From: an uncultured virus (IMG/VR IMGVR_UViG_3300015607_003164)
Lineage: Duplodnaviria > Heunggongvirae > Uroviricota > Caudoviricetes
Virus record (IMG/VR): IMGVR_UViG_3300015607_003164
DNA: 63,252 nucleotides
Direction: 5' to 3' (one strand)
This document shows, one piece after another, positions 1-56,628 of the stretch (positions are counted from its first letter, which is position 1; each line of letters starts with the position of its first letter). The position numbers were made by a program, and so were the translations under genes. The notes beneath the pieces were generated by a model. It ran no database searches and was not told the DNA's origin. It was given only the letters and a program-made list of their open reading frames with translations.

Positions 1-44
1 CTAATGCGGTTAGTATAGACCATACAGTTAGATTACGGTAAATA

Positions 45-75
45 AAAAAGCCTCTTATTATTAAGAGGCTTTTTT
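45..75. terminator. Bidirectional intrinsic terminator
   Basis: AAAAAAGCCTCTTA-TTA-TTAAGAGGCTTTTTT hairpin with A/T tails. Confidence 0.8.
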
Positions 76-90
76 AATATTATAATACTA

Positions 91-210
91 TTATTCAAAA
101 GGAGTATCTGCGCTCCAAGTTGCTCTTTCTTGAGCTTGCTGTCTTTGAAGTTCAGCTTGACGTTGCGCCGCCATCTGTCTCATAATATCTTCTAATGATT
201 TACCTGCCAT
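91..210 (-). CDS. Short 39-aa protein (MAGKSLEDIMRQ...), possibly a deletion remnant
   Basis: Translated by hand; ATG at 210 with A-rich leader, ends just before the terminator. Confidence 0.5.
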   Translation of the reverse strand: MAGKSLEDIMRQMAAQRQAELQRQQAQERATWSADTPFE

Positions 211-281
211 AAATAATTTTTATTTTTATAATGTATATATAAAAACCTAAATTATAAAATTAAAAAAATAGTGATTTATTT

Positions 282-290
282 TAATATATA
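282..290 (+). promoter_or_regulatory. Putative late promoter TAATATATA (representative copy)
   Basis: Same motif precedes genes starting at 4809(-), 7421(-), 31484(-), 41964(-), 51602(-), 51667, 54366, 55843, 58929, 61317, 62047. Confidence 0.7.
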
Positions 291-313
291 GATTAATTAA
301 AAAAAGTAATAAT

Positions 314-970
314 ATGAAATACTTAAAAATATTTGAAACATTTGAATTAGGCACAGCATTTACTGAAGAGGAAAATTCTGATAAAATTGACGTTGAAGGA
401 ATTGAAGTCATTTTAATTAATCTTCCCAATTGGATTAAATCCAGCGATGTACTGTTATACACTGTTGAAATGTCTAAAGCTGGAGCTTTAACCATGTACC
501 CTATATGCTTTGATAATCTTAATAATGCTAAAAATTATATTAAATCATTTGTTGATAGTGATGAAAATTACAAAGATTCGAAATTTGTAATAAGAACATT
601 GTCTTTAAGTAAAGGTAATGTTTCAAATAATATTAATACTCAATTAGATACACCACCAAAGTGGGTTAAGAATCCAAGAGTGTGGGCTATGGATAAAATA
701 GTTGAGCTTTTTACACCAGAATCAAATATATATAAAGTAGCAACTACTTATGTAGAAAGTAAAATATTTGACTTCAAAGATTTAAAAAAGTTAGAATCAA
801 ATATAAGAGCTATTTATCAATCTTGTAAAGACAAGAAAGAATTAGATGTTAAAGACCATGTTAGGAGATTCAAATCAGAATTGGCTAAAACTAAGAATAA
901 AGACTTAGTTAATAATAAAGATAAATATACTCAGGTTTATAAATTTGAAAATCTATTAACCTACTTTTAA
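314..970 (+). CDS. Hypothetical protein with N-terminal MKYLKIFE tag
   Basis: 218-aa ORF, TAATATATA upstream. Confidence 0.85.
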   Translation: MKYLKIFETFELGTAFTEEENSDKIDVEGIEVILINLPNWIKSSDVLLYTVEMSKAGALTMYPICFDNLNNAKNYIKSFVDSDENYKDSKFVIRTLSLSKGNVSNNINTQLDTPPKWVKNPRVWAMDKIVELFTPESNIYKVATTYVESKIFDFKDLKKLESNIRAIYQSCKDKKELDVKDHVRRFKSELAKTKNKDLVNNKDKYTQVYKFENLLTYF

Positions 971-9460: not shown

Positions 9461-9823
9461 ATGAAATACAAATACTTTAGTGCCGACTTATTACTTGCTG
9501 CTTTAATTATAATCTTTATTGGCTTATTCTTTATTAGACCAGTAACTAAAGCAGAAGAACCAGCTCAATACACAATTGAGTATGTTAATCCACTAAACAA
9601 CGTTCAGAAAACTGAGATTGTTAGATCAATGATTAACCAGTTTAGTCCGGTTTGCCGACCTAATAGAATCACGGTTGGTGTGTTAGTTAGTGTTGAAACT
9701 GATGGTGCTTGTTTATCTGGTCAAGACCTTAAAAATATTAGTGATAGAACCTTAAATAGAATACACCAACCAGATGAGGTTAAAGTAATTAAATTAAACG
9801 GTAAGCAAATCTATCCTAATTAA
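9461..9823 (+). CDS. Membrane-anchored hypothetical protein
   Basis: N-terminal TM helix. Confidence 0.8.
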   Translation: MKYKYFSADLLLAALIIIFIGLFFIRPVTKAEEPAQYTIEYVNPLNNVQKTEIVRSMINQFSPVCRPNRITVGVLVSVETDGACLSGQDLKNISDRTLNRIHQPDEVKVIKLNGKQIYPN

Positions 9824-10317
9824 TGAATAATATTAACCTACACGGCAGACTTCCTGAAGACCTACCTGACAAAGAAACAGTAGATGATATTCTACTGGAA
9901 CTTAAAGACACTAATAAGTTTGATGTTAGATGGGTTCATCTAAACGGTCAAGCCTGGCGTGCTCATAATAAAGTATTTGATAACTTTGTAGAAAAAGGTC
10001 AAATCAGCATAATGAAGTGTGATCCAATACCTACGTTTGATATGCCTAATGATTGGTGGCTTGAAGGTGCGCCTATACAAACTATGAAGTTCAAAGAAAT
10101 AAGATATGATATCCTTAGACATCCTATCAGAATAACAGCTCAATATAAACCAGGTATCCTATCATTAAATAAGTCAGCCCCAGAAATACTTGAAACAGTT
10201 AAAGAAACTTATCTAAGACTTAAAGATTATATAGGTCCAGATATTATTCAAGACCAAATTGAACTAGCAGACTTCTCTATTGATTTTATGATTAGTTCTT
10301 GTAGATTAATTAAATAA
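9823..10317 (+). CDS. DILLE-family protein lacking the N-tag
   Basis: VDDILLELKD...RLKDY. Confidence 0.75.
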   Translation: MNNINLHGRLPEDLPDKETVDDILLELKDTNKFDVRWVHLNGQAWRAHNKVFDNFVEKGQISIMKCDPIPTFDMPNDWWLEGAPIQTMKFKEIRYDILRHPIRITAQYKPGILSLNKSAPEILETVKETYLRLKDYIGPDIIQDQIELADFSIDFMISSCRLIK

Positions 10318-10334
10318 TTATTCGTATCTTTGTA

Positions 10335-10492
10335 TGAATAATGTTGAGCTTACTCAACACCTTATGTGAGAATAAGGATTAAAGCAAACATGATCTCACC
10401 TCTCTGTTTGTTTCGCCTGGTATTGAGCGAGCGTGAGTGCGAAAGCCTTCACAACCTTCGGGTTCCGAATAAGGGCGAATCAATACTTTTTT
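10335..10492 (+). ncRNA. Candidate multi-hairpin pseudoknotted RNA
   Basis: Seven or more complementary segments, GAAA and C(UUCG)G loops, promoter at 10325, T-run at end. Confidence 0.7.
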
Positions 10493-10502
10493 ACTTGTAA
10501 CT

Positions 10503-10763
10503 ATGATTGTATTCAACACCATAAAAAAAGCCGAACATTACGTCAAGTTCTGTAATAAGACTAAAGACTATTATAATGATGGCTATGATTGGTCTGAACA
10601 ATGTACCTATATAGATGGCAACTTAGTTAAAATAAGAAATGCCGGTGATGGCTGTGGTTGCGGCTGTGATATGCATCTTTATAATTACACCACAGTAATA
10701 GGCAGAATTAAAGCCTATGATCAGAAAACAATAAGACACCAAAAGTTAAAGAATATACTTTAA
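10503..10763 (+). CDS. Hypothetical protein (GCGCGC motif), C-terminal tag RHQKLKNIL
   Basis: ORF. Confidence 0.8.
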   Translation: MIVFNTIKKAEHYVKFCNKTKDYYNDGYDWSEQCTYIDGNLVKIRNAGDGCGCGCDMHLYNYTTVIGRIKAYDQKTIRHQKLKNIL

Positions 10764-11918: not shown

Positions 11919-12624
11919 TGCAGCCGTTATACACAATACTACATCAGTGCTCCAATTATAGTTCTGTGTAAAAAACTTTTTAAAAATTTCCCTACCTTTT
12001 TAAATTATTCTTTTCATAATCAAATAGTCTTTTCGCTATTTCATCCGCACCCATTTTGTCTCTTACATTATCAATGAACTTTCTATGAATATCCATTAAT
12101 TCAGTCGCTCTTTCATCTGTTTTAGAAACTTTACCGTATATTGTCCCTTCCAAGTATCTTTTCAATTCATACTTGATTTCATCATCAAACGCAATTTTTG
12201 ATGTATTTTCATTGACATTCTTTTCAATATACAAATCAGGTTCTTTTCTACTAATCCAATTATTTATCTCAATTTCGTTAATATCATACCCATACCATTC
12301 AGGTAATTTAACATCCCATTTGTTTTCAATTTTATCAACCCTACCTTTATTATCAAAGTGTATTCTGATAAAAAACAAATCGTTCTTTTTAGATTTAATT
12401 GTTATTGGTTGTTTAACGACAACTTCTTCATTCAAGAATTGTTTCCAGTTCTTTACTCTATCTATTTGTTCTCTCATTTCTTATAATTTTTTATTTTATA
12501 TATAAATATTAAGTTTTTAAAAAAATTCACCCTTCTTTTTTCTTTTAAAATTTTTGTTCAGTTCTCCGATTAAACATTCTACCTTANNCAAGGTGTATAA
12601 GAAAGTTTGCCATCAACAGTTGTG
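11919..12624. mobile_element. Foreign single-gene insert (cassette-like, or assembly chimera)
   Basis: Interrupts a gene; TTATACAC/GTGTATAA inverted ends; contains NN. Confidence 0.45.
11992..12477 (-). CDS. Hypothetical protein carried on the insert
   Basis: 161-aa ORF starting MREQIDRVKNWKQFLNE. Confidence 0.8.
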   Translation of the reverse strand: MREQIDRVKNWKQFLNEEVVVKQPITIKSKKNDLFFIRIHFDNKGRVDKIENKWDVKLPEWYGYDINEIEINNWISRKEPDLYIEKNVNENTSKIAFDDEIKYELKRYLEGTIYGKVSKTDERATELMDIHRKFIDNVRDKMGADEIAKRLFDYEKNNLKR

Positions 12625-26754: not shown

Positions 26755-27444
26755 ATGAATAGAAAAGATATTAAAATCATACAAGTAAGCTCAGAGCCAA
26801 ATGCTGAAAGGGAAGTAAAGTCATTTAACTCTTTATCAAAGTTAGGTTATAGATACATTAGGATTATCAATCCACGTTGCACTGAATACCCACCAACTCA
26901 TAATGTTTTTGATGGGCATACTGATTGGATAGTTGGTGTTACTAAACCAGATCCAAATAAGTTTGGATTTACATCAGGTCACTATGGTGCTTGGCAAGGA
27001 CATTTATCAGCCATTATGTCTTCTTTTGTTGATAATGATTATACTTTAATATGTGAGTGTGATTGTTTATTAGCCGTAGATGTTGAAGCTTTCCGTGAAA
27101 GGGTAGATGAAGCAATTAATTTATTAGAGAACTCTGATTATAAAATTGTCAGATTTGAGGCACCTAATCATCAAGTAGAATTTACAGATAAAGTATCTGA
27201 TAATTTATATTTAGGTAATGTAATGACACTTGGTCACTGTTACTTAATTAATTCAAAAAAACATCGTAACTGGTGGTTAGATAGATTTGATAATGTTGGT
27301 TGGCACACGCCTGATTGGTGGTTGAATTTTGCTTTTGAAAGAGCTGGTGAGAAAATGCCTATATTCAAAGACTTGATTCTCACAAAGCAGTCTGAAGGAT
27401 TTTCTATAATAGACAATGTTTTTAGAGAAGAGAAATATAATTAA
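26755..27444 (+). CDS. Glycosyltransferase, GT25-like
   Basis: GHYGAWQGH, LICECD, HCYLIN, TPDW. Confidence 0.7.
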   Translation: MNRKDIKIIQVSSEPNAEREVKSFNSLSKLGYRYIRIINPRCTEYPPTHNVFDGHTDWIVGVTKPDPNKFGFTSGHYGAWQGHLSAIMSSFVDNDYTLICECDCLLAVDVEAFRERVDEAINLLENSDYKIVRFEAPNHQVEFTDKVSDNLYLGNVMTLGHCYLINSKKHRNWWLDRFDNVGWHTPDWWLNFAFERAGEKMPIFKDLILTKQSEGFSIIDNVFREEKYN

Positions 27445-32114: not shown

Positions 32115-32732
32115 ATAGACCACCAAAGAAAACACAGAAGTCTTTAGCTTCTGTGATGAATTTGACTTAACTTTTTATAAGGAAGGTAACAATTTTTAAT
32201 ATATAAATTATGTTAAAATCCTATAAATATAGAATATATCCAACTGACGATCAGATAGTTAAATTATCAAATATCTTTGGTCAAGTTAGATTTGTATATA
32301 ATTTAGGATTAGAAACAAAGATAAATGCTTGGAAAACACATAGAAAATCTATATCAGCATTTGATCTTAATAACCAAATTAAAGACCTCAAAGATCATAT
32401 AGACTGGATTGATGCACCCAGCCAATCTTTACAGATGGCTATGAAAAACTTAGATAGTGCTTATAATTCATTCTTCAAAGGTGGTGGTTTCCCTAAATTC
32501 AAGAATAAATATAGTAAGCAGAGTTTCCAACTACCACAAGGTGTTCACTTTAAGGATGGTAAGGTATTCATACCTAAACTTAAATTGGTGGATATAGATA
32601 TACATAGAGAATTTAATGGGACTATAAAAACATCAACTATTTCTAAATCAACTACTAATAAATATTACATTTCAATTCTAGTGGATACTCATGTGTCCAA
32701 ACCAGAAAAGAAACCAATTAAATTATCCACTA
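32115..32732 (+). mobile_element. Truncated IS200/IS605-family element
   Basis: Left-end hairpin CACAGAAG-TCTTTAG-CTTCTGTG after TTTAT; 41 bp identical to 58475-58515. Confidence 0.85.
32210..32732 (+). pseudogene. tnpB: TnpB N-terminal fragment
   Basis: KSYKYRIYPT..FGQVRFVYN..GFPKFK..KYYISILV; RuvC part missing. Confidence 0.9.
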
Positions 32733-32733
32733 G

Positions 32734-33315
32734 TATGTTTTCTTTGATGAGAATGGTAAGAAAGTGGAATATACAATGGATGAGGTTATTAAAATCATTT
32801 ACAATATGGACTATGACTTTGATGATACAAAAGTTAAGCCTATTGATAATCCTACTTTAGTTCAAGCTACACCAATACAAGAGGTAGTTAATCACAAGTC
32901 TAAAAAATCTATTGGTGCTTCAGTTACTAAGTTCTCTGTTAGTCACAATGGCTTATTAAAATCTTCTAATAAATCATTCAAACGAATGTATATGGAAGTA
33001 ACTGTATCATTTACTAATGTACCGAGAGGTATCTATGAAATATATCTAAACAACCCTAACGACAGCTTCTCAACTAGTAGCGAGCACTTCGTAGGTTTTA
33101 TGAATTTCTTTGGCTTTGACTCTAAAACACAAAGTAAATCTTGTACAAAAGGTTGTTGTACTCCTGTTAATTCAGAAGGAAGACCTTATACAGTGTTTTA
33201 TTATGAGTTAGATCCAAATACCGGTGCTGCCGGAGATTATAACATTGCTGTTTATAAGCATAATAAAGTATCAAGTGATTTGATAATTGAAAGTGTTAGA
33301 ATTACCGGAAGATAA
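32734..33315 (+). pseudogene. Tyrosinase/polyphenol oxidase, 3' part
   Basis: YVFFDENGKKV..MDYDF and C-terminal YEIYLN..HFVG domain; CuB region absent. Confidence 0.7.
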
Positions 33316-33382: not shown

Positions 33383-34363
33383 ATGAAATTAAATCAAAAA
33401 ACACTTGAAAGAATAGTTTATAACTCTGTTGCCAATGATACAGCGTTTCGTAAATTACTTGTAGGTGATTATTTTCCTTATAAAAACTACAGAACCGAGA
33501 TGGTTTTACATCGTGTTAAAGATTCTGAGACATCAGATGGTTATATTGATATTCATTTCAAAGTAATATTTACTAACTTAGATAATGATTACAGTCATAG
33601 TAAAACCTTTGATAGGCATGGTTCTTTAACTATAAACAAATTAGTTTATACTCAATATAACAGAGAACTAACACTTCAAGAAATGGCAATTACACAAGAA
33701 GATAAAATCAGAAAATCATTAAATGAATATTTAGAGTTTGACTCTGATGAATTATTTAGGAGTAAGTTTAACATAGTTAGAATATTTGGTGGTGCTATTC
33801 GTGATATCATCGCTGGTCAAGATATTAATGACGTTGATATTCTTTGTGGCTCTAAAGCAATCAGATATATTGAAATGGTTCTTGAAAAGAATGGTTATCA
33901 ATATATGGAAATGTTGAATGGTAAAGATATTCAAGAAATGTATTCTGAAATTCACGTTATTAATGAACCACATACTTGGATTAAAGGTAAAAAGATTGTT
34001 CAATTAATAAGACCTTCATTAGGTTTTCAAGGTAAAGATGAATCAGTATATCGTCAAGGATTCTCTGATTTAATATCAAATGTTGATTTAAGTTGTTGTG
34101 GTGTTTCTTATGACGGTGAAAGTCTTTATGAAGATTATCCAAATGCGATTGTTCATTGTCAGAGTAAAGTCTTTTCTGTTAATATGTTTGCTAAGATGTA
34201 TTCTCAGAAAAGAGTTCATCATAGAAAAGCTAAATTAGAAAGTAGAGGCTGGACTGAAGTAGAAAATAAAACTAACTTAAATAGAGACTTAAAAATTAAT
34301 AATGTTTTAGGCTTAGAGTCTCAGTTAAAATCAAATCATTTTGAAAGTGTATATGGTTGCTAA
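33383..34363 (+). CDS. Nucleotidyltransferase (CCA/poly(A) polymerase head-like), tag RDLKINNVLGL
   Basis: FGGAIRD...NDVDIL, VDLSCC. Confidence 0.8.
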   Translation: MKLNQKTLERIVYNSVANDTAFRKLLVGDYFPYKNYRTEMVLHRVKDSETSDGYIDIHFKVIFTNLDNDYSHSKTFDRHGSLTINKLVYTQYNRELTLQEMAITQEDKIRKSLNEYLEFDSDELFRSKFNIVRIFGGAIRDIIAGQDINDVDILCGSKAIRYIEMVLEKNGYQYMEMLNGKDIQEMYSEIHVINEPHTWIKGKKIVQLIRPSLGFQGKDESVYRQGFSDLISNVDLSCCGVSYDGESLYEDYPNAIVHCQSKVFSVNMFAKMYSQKRVHHRKAKLESRGWTEVENKTNLNRDLKINNVLGLESQLKSNHFESVYGC

Positions 34364-55842: not shown

Positions 55843-56628
55843 ATGGAAAATGTTTTTATATATGCGCTATCTGATCCGAGAAACGATCAAGTTAGATATA
55901 TTGGTAAGGCTAATAATCCTTATGATAGGTATTCAAATCATTACAATTCAGCAAGAGATATAAATACACACAAAAGAAATTGGATTAATAATATTAGAAA
56001 AGATGGTTTAAGACCGGAATTAATTATTATTGATGAAGTACCAAAGAATGAATGGATATATTGGGAGAAATTCTATATCTCTTTATTTAAGACTTGGGGA
56101 TTTGACTTAGTTAATTATACAGGAGGTGGTGATGGTGCTACTTTCGGTAATAGTGGATCCTTTAAGAAAGGAAATATACCACACAACAAGGGTATTCCTT
56201 GTAGTGATGAAACTAAAAGGAAAATTAAAAATAAATTAACTGGAATTTCTAATGTTAATAGTTATAAGCCTATAGTTCAATATGACTTAAATTATAATAA
56301 AATAAAAAGTTATAAATGTATTAAAGATGCTGTAGATGAGAGTAATGGCTTTTTCAATGCTACCAAGATATCAAATTGTCTTACTGGTAAAAGAAAACAT
56401 CATAGACTTTTTATTTGGAAATATGATGACGGCTCAGACTTAAATAAAATTGAAATAAAACCTCTAAAAAAACAAGTCATTCAACTTGATAAAGATCTAA
56501 ATGAGTTGAATAGATTCTCATCTATAAAAAAAGCAGAAAGTGAAACAAATGTGTTGGGTGCTAACATATGTGCTTGTTGTAAAGGCAGGATTAAAACAGC
56601 AGGAGGTTATATATGGAAATACTTGTAA
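55843..56628 (+). CDS. GIY-YIG homing endonuclease with NUMOD-type DNA-binding domains
   Basis: FIYAL..RYIGKA..R; LVN.T.GGDG; IVQYDL and KTAGGYIWKY modules. Confidence 0.85.
   Translation: MENVFIYALSDPRNDQVRYIGKANNPYDRYSNHYNSARDINTHKRNWINNIRKDGLRPELIIIDEVPKNEWIYWEKFYISLFKTWGFDLVNYTGGGDGATFGNSGSFKKGNIPHNKGIPCSDETKRKIKNKLTGISNVNSYKPIVQYDLNYNKIKSYKCIKDAVDESNGFFNATKISNCLTGKRKHHRLFIWKYDDGSDLNKIEIKPLKKQVIQLDKDLNELNRFSSIKKAESETNVLGANICACCKGRIKTAGGYIWKYL

Follow-up and report, generated by a model that had tools for sequence, protein, structure and literature searches.

What function could an unusually dense set of complementary segments have between two genes of a phage genome? This question is raised by a stretch of 63,252 nucleotides (nt) from an uncultured virus of the Caudoviricetes (IMG/VR record IMGVR_UViG_3300015607_003164), which we refer to as the window in its full length. 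We found that the stretch flagged in it, at positions 10335-10492, is a real, conserved, structured RNA with covarying helices. It is as intricate as a riboswitch or small ribozyme, with at least five helices, a kissing loop of six base pairs (bp) and an H-type pseudoknot, and its covariation is unusually clean. The RNA precedes a gene for a protein of 86 amino acids (aa), and together the two form an inseparable, single-copy, two-part cassette in large phages. The features of the locus are the following.

10318-10502, plus strand: intergenic gap of 185 nt, between a 164-aa open reading frame (ORF; 9823-10317, plus strand) and the 86-aa ORF (10503-10763, plus strand).
10325-10332, plus strand: the box TATCTTTG, read off the sequence, which matches TAnnTTTG.
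10342-10348 with 10353-10359, plus strand: hairpin P0, 7 bp with loop CTTA, variable in sequence and adjoining P1 in most homologues.
10360-10365 with 10372-10377, plus strand: hairpin P1, stem CCTTAT/ATAAGG with loop L1 (GTGAGA, 10366-10371), from covariation and RNAalifold.
10385-10390 with 10405-10410, plus strand: hairpin P2, stem CAAACA/TGTTTG with a 14-base loop, from covariation.
10394-10399, plus strand: TCTCAC, the partner of L1 inside the P2 loop, followed by a mostly conserved pyrimidine stretch.
10411-10416, plus strand: TTTCGC box, invariant in the main family; its TCGC (10413-10416) is the 5' strand of the second pseudoknot.
10419-10426, plus strand: 5' strand of the long-range helix P3, with GTATTGA at 10420-10426; position 10419 was added by RNAalifold (pair 10419:10487).
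10427-10430, plus strand: GCGA, 3' strand of the pseudoknot with 10413-10416 and also 5' side of the conserved internal loop that separates P3 from P4.
10431-10476, plus strand: P4 domain with base pairs 10431:10476 and 10432:10475, enclosing three variable hairpins.
10433-10452 (GAAA loop), 10453-10464 (TTCG loop) and 10465-10474, plus strand: the hairpins inside P4, which number one to three among homologues.
10439-10446, plus strand: GC-GAAA-GC, read off the sequence.
10453-10464, plus strand: AACC-TTCG-GGTT, read off the sequence.
10477-10479, plus strand: GAA, the 3' side of the internal loop; both A are invariant in the alignment A5 and the first base is mostly G or A.
10480-10487, plus strand: 3' strand of P3, with TCAATAC at 10480-10486.
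10487-10492, plus strand: run of six T directly 3' of P3, terminator-like.
10503-10763, plus strand: gene for the 86-aa protein, with the RNA always upstream.

An initial annotation had described this stretch as a compact RNA with kissing loops and a pseudoknot, and every complementary segment listed there was found in its place in a sequence check. Folding of the single sequence lies modestly above chance: the plus strand reaches -49.2 kcal/mol (z -2.68), which 4 of 200 dinucleotide shuffles equal, and the minus strand of the motif has a z of -2.08. Such values are suggestive alone, and the case rests on homologues.

Homologous DNA was fetched with the 86-aa protein as query. This gave 10 loci in IMG/VR, one of them (L011) a motif-only match, and a protein alignment searched against 37 of 64 parts of the JGI metagenomes gave at least 593 pattern matches and at least 82 relatives, of which 80 were kept. 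IMG/VR was also searched with two DNA patterns that ignored the gene. All six matches to the first lie at the same gene, with L015 as a new locus, and the second, looser one yielded four true matches at the gene along with two in coding regions (L019 and L022), which lack P3 complementarity, score only 15-18 bits and were treated as chance. The 88 loci examined comprise the window, 7 from the first rounds and 80 from metagenomes; 3 end with their contig and have no upstream DNA, and the remaining 85 yield 68 distinct RNA sequences.

The check for covariation among homologues, which the initial annotation had proposed, came out in favour of the fold. In A5, a MAFFT alignment of 56 distinct main-type sequences built without structural input, 95.1% of the cells at 29 tested pairs are paired, compared with 32.5-45.6% when the 3' partners are slid by 1-3 columns. 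Changes on both sides occur at 22 of the 29 pairs, and none of 500 shuffles reaches any of the five measures. P1 (six pairs) is 91.6% paired with both-side changes at all six, the P2 stem (six pairs) 91.8% with both-side changes at five, the L1:L2 kiss (six pairs) 92.7% with both-side changes at all six, and P3 (seven pairs) 100% with both-side changes at five. The kiss is realized by 26 different loop-pair combinations, for example GUGAGA:UCUCAC, GUCAAG:CUUGAC and GCGGAA:CUCCGC; it is complementary at all six positions in 39 of the 56 sequences and at five or more in 48, and the low scorers are mostly alignment shifts that can be resolved by eye.

Applied to A5 independently, RNAalifold yields P1, an 8-bp P3 and, in addition, the pairs 10431:10476 and 10432:10475 at the base of P4. 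These two pairs changed on both sides in 16 and 22 sequences and rank third and sixth by mutual information (MI). The top 12 pairs of the MI scan, computed with average-product correction, all belong to P1, P2, the kiss, P3 or P4, and the scan of A5 holds no second, competing set of covarying pairs. For P0, the 42 nt upstream of P1 were folded in the 56 homologues, which gave a median z of -1.5 and values below -1 in 37 of them (mononucleotide shuffles). The initial annotation was right about P0, P1, P2, the kiss and P3.

Between the helices, the boxes UUUCGC, GAGCGA and AAUC are invariant throughout the main family. Between the end of the GAGCGA box and the 3' strand of P3, homologues have 20 to 80 nt with one to three hairpins. 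We compared the internal loop with the kink-turn, the sarcin-ricin loop and the UAA/GAN motif, and none fits. Among the homologues, a marine subgroup of 12 distinct sequences, 11 of which are aligned in A8, retains the 3' domain at 30-45 bits. In this subgroup a 5' single strand (CCUG...) appears to stand in for the P1 loop and to match a loop inside P2 (...CAGG), as seen by eye in sequences that vary little.

The second pseudoknot required a correction. The initial annotation had interleaved TTCGCCT/GGGCGAA with GTATTGA/TCAATAC; a pseudoknot does exist and the latter helix, P3, holds, but the former does not covary. Pairing of TTCGCCT (10412-10418) with GGGCGAA (10473-10479) reaches 77.6% in A5, and 489 of 500 shuffles are as good. 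Moreover, G10475 and C10476 covary with C10432 and G10431 at the base of P4 and not with TTCGCCT, and the full UUCGC:GCGAA core, which does not covary either, is possible in about 32-35 of the 56 sequences only. The pseudoknot that is supported instead joins UCGC (10413-10416) to GCGA (10427-10430). Since both boxes are invariant in the main family, their complementarity there proves nothing, and distant relatives of the gene were examined for this reason. Two divergent subgroups, aligned as A9 and A10, served as queries for these and brought in 14 true loci (L115-L127 and L130), at 42-60% identity to the queries.

In the divergent relatives, both pseudoknot boxes change together and keep their register. 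The pair UCGC:GCGA of the main family is replaced by UCAC:GUGA in L115, L116, L118, L119-L121, L124, L125, L126 and L127, by UCCU:AGGA in L117 (by eye) and by GCGC:GCGC, with a register shift of 2 nt, in L122 and L123 (by eye). A12 is an alignment of 73 sequences fitted with a covariance model to the nested helices and not to the pseudoknot; in it pairing at the four pseudoknot positions is 100%, the third position being G:C in 68 sequences and A:U in 5. The pairs were counted on A12 because the MAFFT alignment A11 mis-registered the L115 group. Independent events are few, perhaps three or four lineages, and this helix is therefore supported less firmly than the others. The predicted topology is of the H type and runs from UCGC through a linker of 0-7 nt, the 5' strand of P3, GCGA, and the P4 domain with RAA to the 3' strand of P3; the invariant adenines probably lie against the short pseudoknot helix. 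One homologue, L030, has a 22-nt insertion in the linker, with a small hairpin (GGUCU-UA-GACC, about 118-137) between the UUUCGC box and P3, which indicates that the linker tolerates insertion.

How closely is this RNA bound to the gene behind it? The motif directly precedes the gene, on its strand, in all 85 loci with upstream DNA, and in each at least 6 of 7 P3 positions are complementary. The start codon follows P3 by 8-33 nt (median 16) in 66 of 67 sequences, which leaves no room for a separate promoter; the exception is L049, with 105 nt. The RNA model finds a single copy in the window (126.1 bits, E 7e-24; next match 11 bits) and exactly one match in each of 67 loci. Phage records were covered too: five of them (242, 281, 436, 483 and 635 kb) each contain one strong match, at the gene locus (E 1e-14 to 1e-16), and the sole further match in them has 17 bits and an E of 0.69. 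The other gene neighbours are not conserved, as the best further gene family is common to 12 of 68 loci.

This coupling extends to the distant relatives of the gene. With filters off, the RNA model R1 matches upstream of the gene at E <= 0.05 in 9 of the 14 distant loci; its matches in L122, L123, L126 and L127 are weak and rightly placed, and in L117 it has no match at the expected place with filters off. The same architecture can be read by eye in all 10 distant sequences that were printed. The proposal of the initial annotation that the element is a regulatory leader of the gene at 10503 is borne out in this link, which holds in 85 of 85 loci and in more distant relatives, and its novelty in the lack of any Rfam match. 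A weak match to the RNA model on the minus strand of the window (26761-26848; 11 bits, E 1.2) has broken P2 pairs and is most likely chance.

The start of the RNA may be marked by the box TATCTTTG. It matches TAnnTTTG, which we take to be the consensus of the '-7' promoter box of Bacteroidota, and as a putative promoter it would place the 5' end of the RNA near 10338-10341. An exact TAnnTTTG occurs upstream of the motif in 19 of the 68 distinct homologues, including the window (10325-10332). A scan for σ70-type promoters was uninformative, with 9 sites compared with 7.3 expected. In the homologue L002 (1285-1328), a hairpin with a U-run, terminator-like, is followed by TATCTTTG directly before the RNA, which suggests that the cassette in this locus is its own transcription unit.

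The protein partner is as unfamiliar to the databases as the RNA. Its family comprises 278 clusters at 90% identity, none of which has a name or a Pfam domain, and its contigs reach 816 kb; a profile search of the full library condensed to only 36 clusters at 50% identity, and all but one are small, stand-alone proteins. No member occurs in 185,579 prokaryote species, each represented by one genome, where five loci were rejected as true relatives because only 11-17 residues around CGCGC match. It is present in one of 50,697 GenBank phage records, LR745206.1 (634,780 bp), which is also the only relative of the window among these records. LR745206.1 has been described as a megaphage of more than 630 kb from a subsurface sample that carries a SusC-like gene (PMC9723777).

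Across 44 sequences of the protein, F4, N5, T6, K8, A10, I37, D49, the CGCGC stretch (C51-C55), G67, I69 and K70 are invariant. Divergent members, too, retain three cysteines, as CGCGC, C.CGC or C...CC, which suggests that the protein may bind metal. Its net charge is about +4, from residues counted by eye. AlphaFold2, supplied with the 44 sequences, gives a confident α/β model (pLDDT 86.3). Comparisons of the protein with Pfam, PHROGs, PADLOC, NCBIfam, the ESM Atlas and a PDB sequence profile were blank or below noise, as were Pfam searches with 17 divergent relatives. PUR-alpha and levivirus coat proteins appeared as fold neighbours in weak VIA-align rows (Z 3.5-3.8), which we do not trust.

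Could the RNA belong to a class that is already catalogued? The initial annotation had matched it to no known family, and this stood: the 4227 models of Rfam 15, among them riboswitches, ribozymes, pRNA, tmRNA and phage leader motifs, give no match in the whole window at gathering scores. A scan of 20 divergent homologous loci at E up to 0.1 likewise leaves the motif unmatched and picks up nothing but tRNAs, in L068. Between 10100 and 10800 at E up to 10, Rfam 15 returns chance-level matches only, to TtnuCD21 (E 3; 20.4 bits, where the gathering score is 70) and RAGATH-30 (E 9.9). ARAGORN calls no tRNA or tmRNA gene in the window, blastn of the RNA alone against GenBank phages gives only chance-level matches of 40 nt (E about 7), and full-text literature searches turned up no description of the motif. 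The element is an uncatalogued family of leader RNA; its general kind, a structured cis leader, is known, and its architecture and obligate protein partner are distinctive.

Phage genomes carry several ribozyme classes, and the size of the present RNA, its double-pseudoknot complexity and its invariant unpaired nucleotides are comparable to those of small ribozymes. That it is a self-cleaving ribozyme, of a class so far undescribed, and would process the 5' end of the mRNA is nevertheless highly improbable and lacks specific support: among the Rfam ribozyme families none matches at the thresholds just given, either between 10100 and 10800 or in the 20 homologues, and we recognized neither a candidate cleavage site nor a known catalytic core. 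The arrangement CUGAGCGA...GAA resembles the hammerhead core, but its flanking strands pair as P3, which makes it a two-way internal loop with no three-way junction, and Rfam has no hammerhead match in the window.

The run of U after P3 bears on how the RNA might act. At least five T adjoin P3 in 64 of the 68 distinct main-family sequences, and all 68 have at least five T within the next 8 nt. The shortest forms (L063-L065 and L098) are plain imperfect hairpins with a U-run, close to a plain terminator hairpin. In the window, the T6 run abuts P3 directly, as the U-run of an intrinsic terminator abuts its stem. One might therefore think of a constitutive cis element, in which P0, together with the compact fold, would shield the mRNA at its 5' end while P3 and the U-run would form a fixed attenuator or insulator for low expression, with no sensing. 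The 5'-terminal hairpin conserved in shape only, the one dominant fold with no alternative pairing seen and the U-run kept in so many sequences would all be in line with such an element. We consider it distinctly unlikely, as a simple stabilizer or attenuator would need neither about 20 invariant nucleotides nor a 6-bp kiss and a covarying pseudoknot that persist in such distant relatives, and as some lineages have kept the fold and dispense with the U-run.

We tentatively favour another reading, in which the RNA is a structured 5' leader (10338/42-10492) and a cis-acting gate bound by its own small protein, either as a feedback operator or as a ribonucleoprotein. The leader would gate, in cis, the expression of the gene behind it. 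The fully folded 3' pseudoknot domain would stop RNA polymerase at the U-run and, where this run is missing, could hinder ribosome loading beside the start codon. The factor that stabilizes the fold would most likely be the encoded 86-aa protein, which would make the leader a feedback operator, with the invariant UUUCGC, GAGCGA and AAUC nucleotides as a possible recognition surface; the leader might also persist as a stable RNA-protein particle. We favour the protein over a small molecule as effector because the coupling is exclusive across the detectable breadth of the protein family, because the neighbours vary and because no enzyme or transporter is involved. The protein itself is small, stands alone and belongs to no enzyme or transporter family.

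The position of the RNA and its exclusive one-to-one coupling are those expected of an autoregulatory leader. The leader of T4 gene 32 is an autogenous operator in which a pseudoknot is followed by an unstructured A/U-rich stretch. The present leader shares with it an H-type pseudoknot in a phage leader upstream of a U/A-rich single-stranded stretch that leads to the start codon, and in both the gene's own product is the binder, here a proposed one. Unlike the gene 32 leader, it has a second, kissing pseudoknot and a terminator-like U-run, and its 86-aa protein has no detected likeness to gp32 or any OB-fold protein.

Several results weigh against a protein-bound gate of this kind. The MI scan shows no conserved alternative (antiterminator) pairing, which leaves switching itself hypothetical. 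Termination cannot be the universal output, since the U-run is absent in L117 and L122/L123 and weak in the L115 group. The P3 of the window is not the simple, G+C-rich, short-loop hairpin of an intrinsic terminator; it is AU-rich, has 7-8 bp and closes a multi-hairpin region of 53 nt, and a consensus terminator scan of the window does not call P3 with its U-run. For the protein model, Foldseek finds no match in the PDB at E <= 0.001, and a wide VIA-align search finds nothing significant (best Z 4.7). Finally, the structural complexity and the invariant junction nucleotides would fit a small-molecule aptamer equally well.

This last point leads to a new riboswitch class, in which a double-pseudoknot aptamer would bind a small molecule or ion, P3 would serve as terminator stem or as shield of the start region, and the three-cysteine protein would handle or answer the same ligand. 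As in riboswitches, conserved junction and loop nucleotides lie between covarying helices upstream of a coding region; the P4 insertion varies in length, two pseudoknots are present, and the output differs by lineage (U-run or none) in the way of riboswitch expression platforms. All the same we regard this explanation as unlikely: a single gene family is served in the 85 loci and the divergent ones, genes of metabolism or transport are not linked, the MI scan reveals no conserved mutually exclusive structure, and the genomic context suggests no ligand. The window itself does offer one alternative pairing, TTCGCCT with GGGCGAA, which does not covary.

The architecture can be compared with known riboswitches. 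Regulatory kissing loops occur in the lysine (L2-L3), cobalamin (L5-L13) and guanidine-IV riboswitches, and with these the present RNA shares a Watson-Crick loop-loop helix between hairpins of one RNA that covaries across homologues. In contrast to them, its kiss lies in the 5' domain far from the start codon and U-run, is not itself an expression platform, and no model of these classes matches. A precedent for conserved nucleotides in a terminator hairpin is the HMP-PP/thiS riboswitch, a terminator-embedded aptamer, which likewise has conserved nucleotides within a hairpin followed by a U-run, has an upstream segment that can form a pseudoknot with the 5' shoulder of the terminator, and lies, compact, just upstream of one gene class (PMC6478431). 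The present RNA differs from it in that neither its sequence nor the Rfam model matches, it is about three times larger and carries a kissing-hairpin domain in addition, the MI scan detected no ON/OFF pairing of the mutually exclusive kind, and the gene served is not metabolic.

A second element in one homologue resembles tandem riboswitches, which speaks for the aptamer explanation. In L049 (981-1079), a degenerate U-run after P3 is followed by an element of about 105 nt before the start codon, with a long-range stem (AUUGG...CCAAU) around three hairpins and then U5. This may be a tandem second regulatory RNA; it has no Rfam match at E up to 0.1.

Would the RNA act beyond its own mRNA? It could be processed into a stable small RNA that neutralizes or guides the protein, in a layout like that of type III toxin-antitoxin loci, or it could assemble with itself through its loops like the packaging RNA (pRNA) of phi29. 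Both variants start from observations: the order of promoter, pseudoknotted RNA, terminator-like element and small gene in an autonomous cassette with changing neighbours, and two perfectly complementary loops that could pair between molecules. We nonetheless judge this explanation improbable, as the RNA is a single unit with no tandem repeats, the protein matches no ToxN-like or defence family, the 5' strand that replaces the P1 loop in the marine subgroup (by eye, with little variation) points to an intramolecular contact, and the pRNA family of Rfam is unmatched.

The type III toxin-antitoxin loci known include ToxIN, CptIN and TenpIN, and they too are self-contained cassettes of promoter, pseudoknotted RNA, terminator and protein gene on phages or mobile DNA. 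Unlike these, the present RNA gives a single model match in the window and in 67 of 67 loci, and its protein is half the size and matched no toxin or defence model; Pfam, PADLOC and NCBIfam contain no match above noise to a ToxN/AbiEii-type endoribonuclease in it. With phi29-type pRNA, the element shares a phage origin, a length of about 120-170 nt and two mutually complementary loops. In pRNA the two ends pair with each other and so close the molecule, and the loops of one molecule pair with those of another, whereas P3 here closes only the 3' domain. Furthermore, the contact suggested by the marine variant is intramolecular, no packaging genes adjoin the cassette and the Rfam pRNA model does not match.

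A bolder view of the cassette is possible, though rather less likely than not. It may be an obligate two-component module peculiar to very large phages, in which the RNA would either represent a riboswitch class that is new or belong to a dedicated RNA-protein particle, such as a single-unit analogue of type III toxin-antitoxin systems or an RNA-scaffolded metal-binding complex. If it is such a particle, its function would exceed the control of the gene's own expression. If the protein binds the RNA, a new RNA-binding fold would be gained together with its operator; if a small molecule binds, this would be a new riboswitch class, so far only in phage sequences.

Almost all knowledge of huge phages (200-800 kb) comes from metagenomes; their regulation is wholly unexplored, as are most of their genes. 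Here, an RNA is tied one-to-one to a protein family without known relatives, which makes an RNA of 150 nt and a protein of 86 aa a small, testable pair. The family could enter RNA catalogues, which would end its missed annotation.

The window has about 30% G+C, and its genes include those for a head maturation protease, a baseplate wedge subunit, endonuclease VII, an HNH homing endonuclease and tail proteins. It reads well in the standard code, and read-through of TAG shifts ORF coverage from 0.749 to 0.760 only. DNA of this stretch occurs in wastewater and estuary metagenomes.

Some loci carry tRNA genes or tRNA-like sequences near the cassette, and this adjacency is not general, with a tRNA call within the fetched flanks in 7 of 76 loci. 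A tRNA upstream of the RNA in LR745206 had been read by eye as a TAG suppressor, and this was dropped because ARAGORN calls it tRNA-Arg(TCT). L068 holds, on the opposite strand about 300 nt upstream of the RNA (19-735, minus strand), seven tRNA genes (Val, Cys, Ile, Val, Leu, Arg, Asn), where Rfam finds eight tRNAs. In L115 (about 395-430), and also in L116 and L118, a tRNA-like 3' half with the T-arm GGTTCGAATCC and an acceptor-like end lies directly upstream of P0; ARAGORN calls no tRNA in these three loci despite this half. Loci of the marine type have an odd tRNA-like gene, called by ARAGORN, about 100-350 nt downstream of the small gene, with an anticodon read as ATG ('His') or as a four-base ATGA at the unusual position 30. 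Its positions are as follows.

L008, 1844-1916: marine tRNA-like gene.
L091, 1749-1821: marine tRNA-like gene.
L093, 1547-1621: marine tRNA-like gene.
L097, 1545-1617: marine tRNA-like gene.

Further observations concern the rest of the window. The assembly contains two N at 12587-12588, and the ORF that spans them is translated with XX. An ORF of 261 aa (55843-56625) has HNH/homing endonuclease matches to phrog_20162 (E 2e-18) and phrog_314 (E 2e-12). Another ORF, of 216 aa (32210-32857), matches the phage 'transposase' families phrog_13964 (E 1e-43) and phrog_506 (E 8e-40) and is followed by an unassigned ORF of 326 aa (33383-34360); the two may represent an insertion element within the phage genome.

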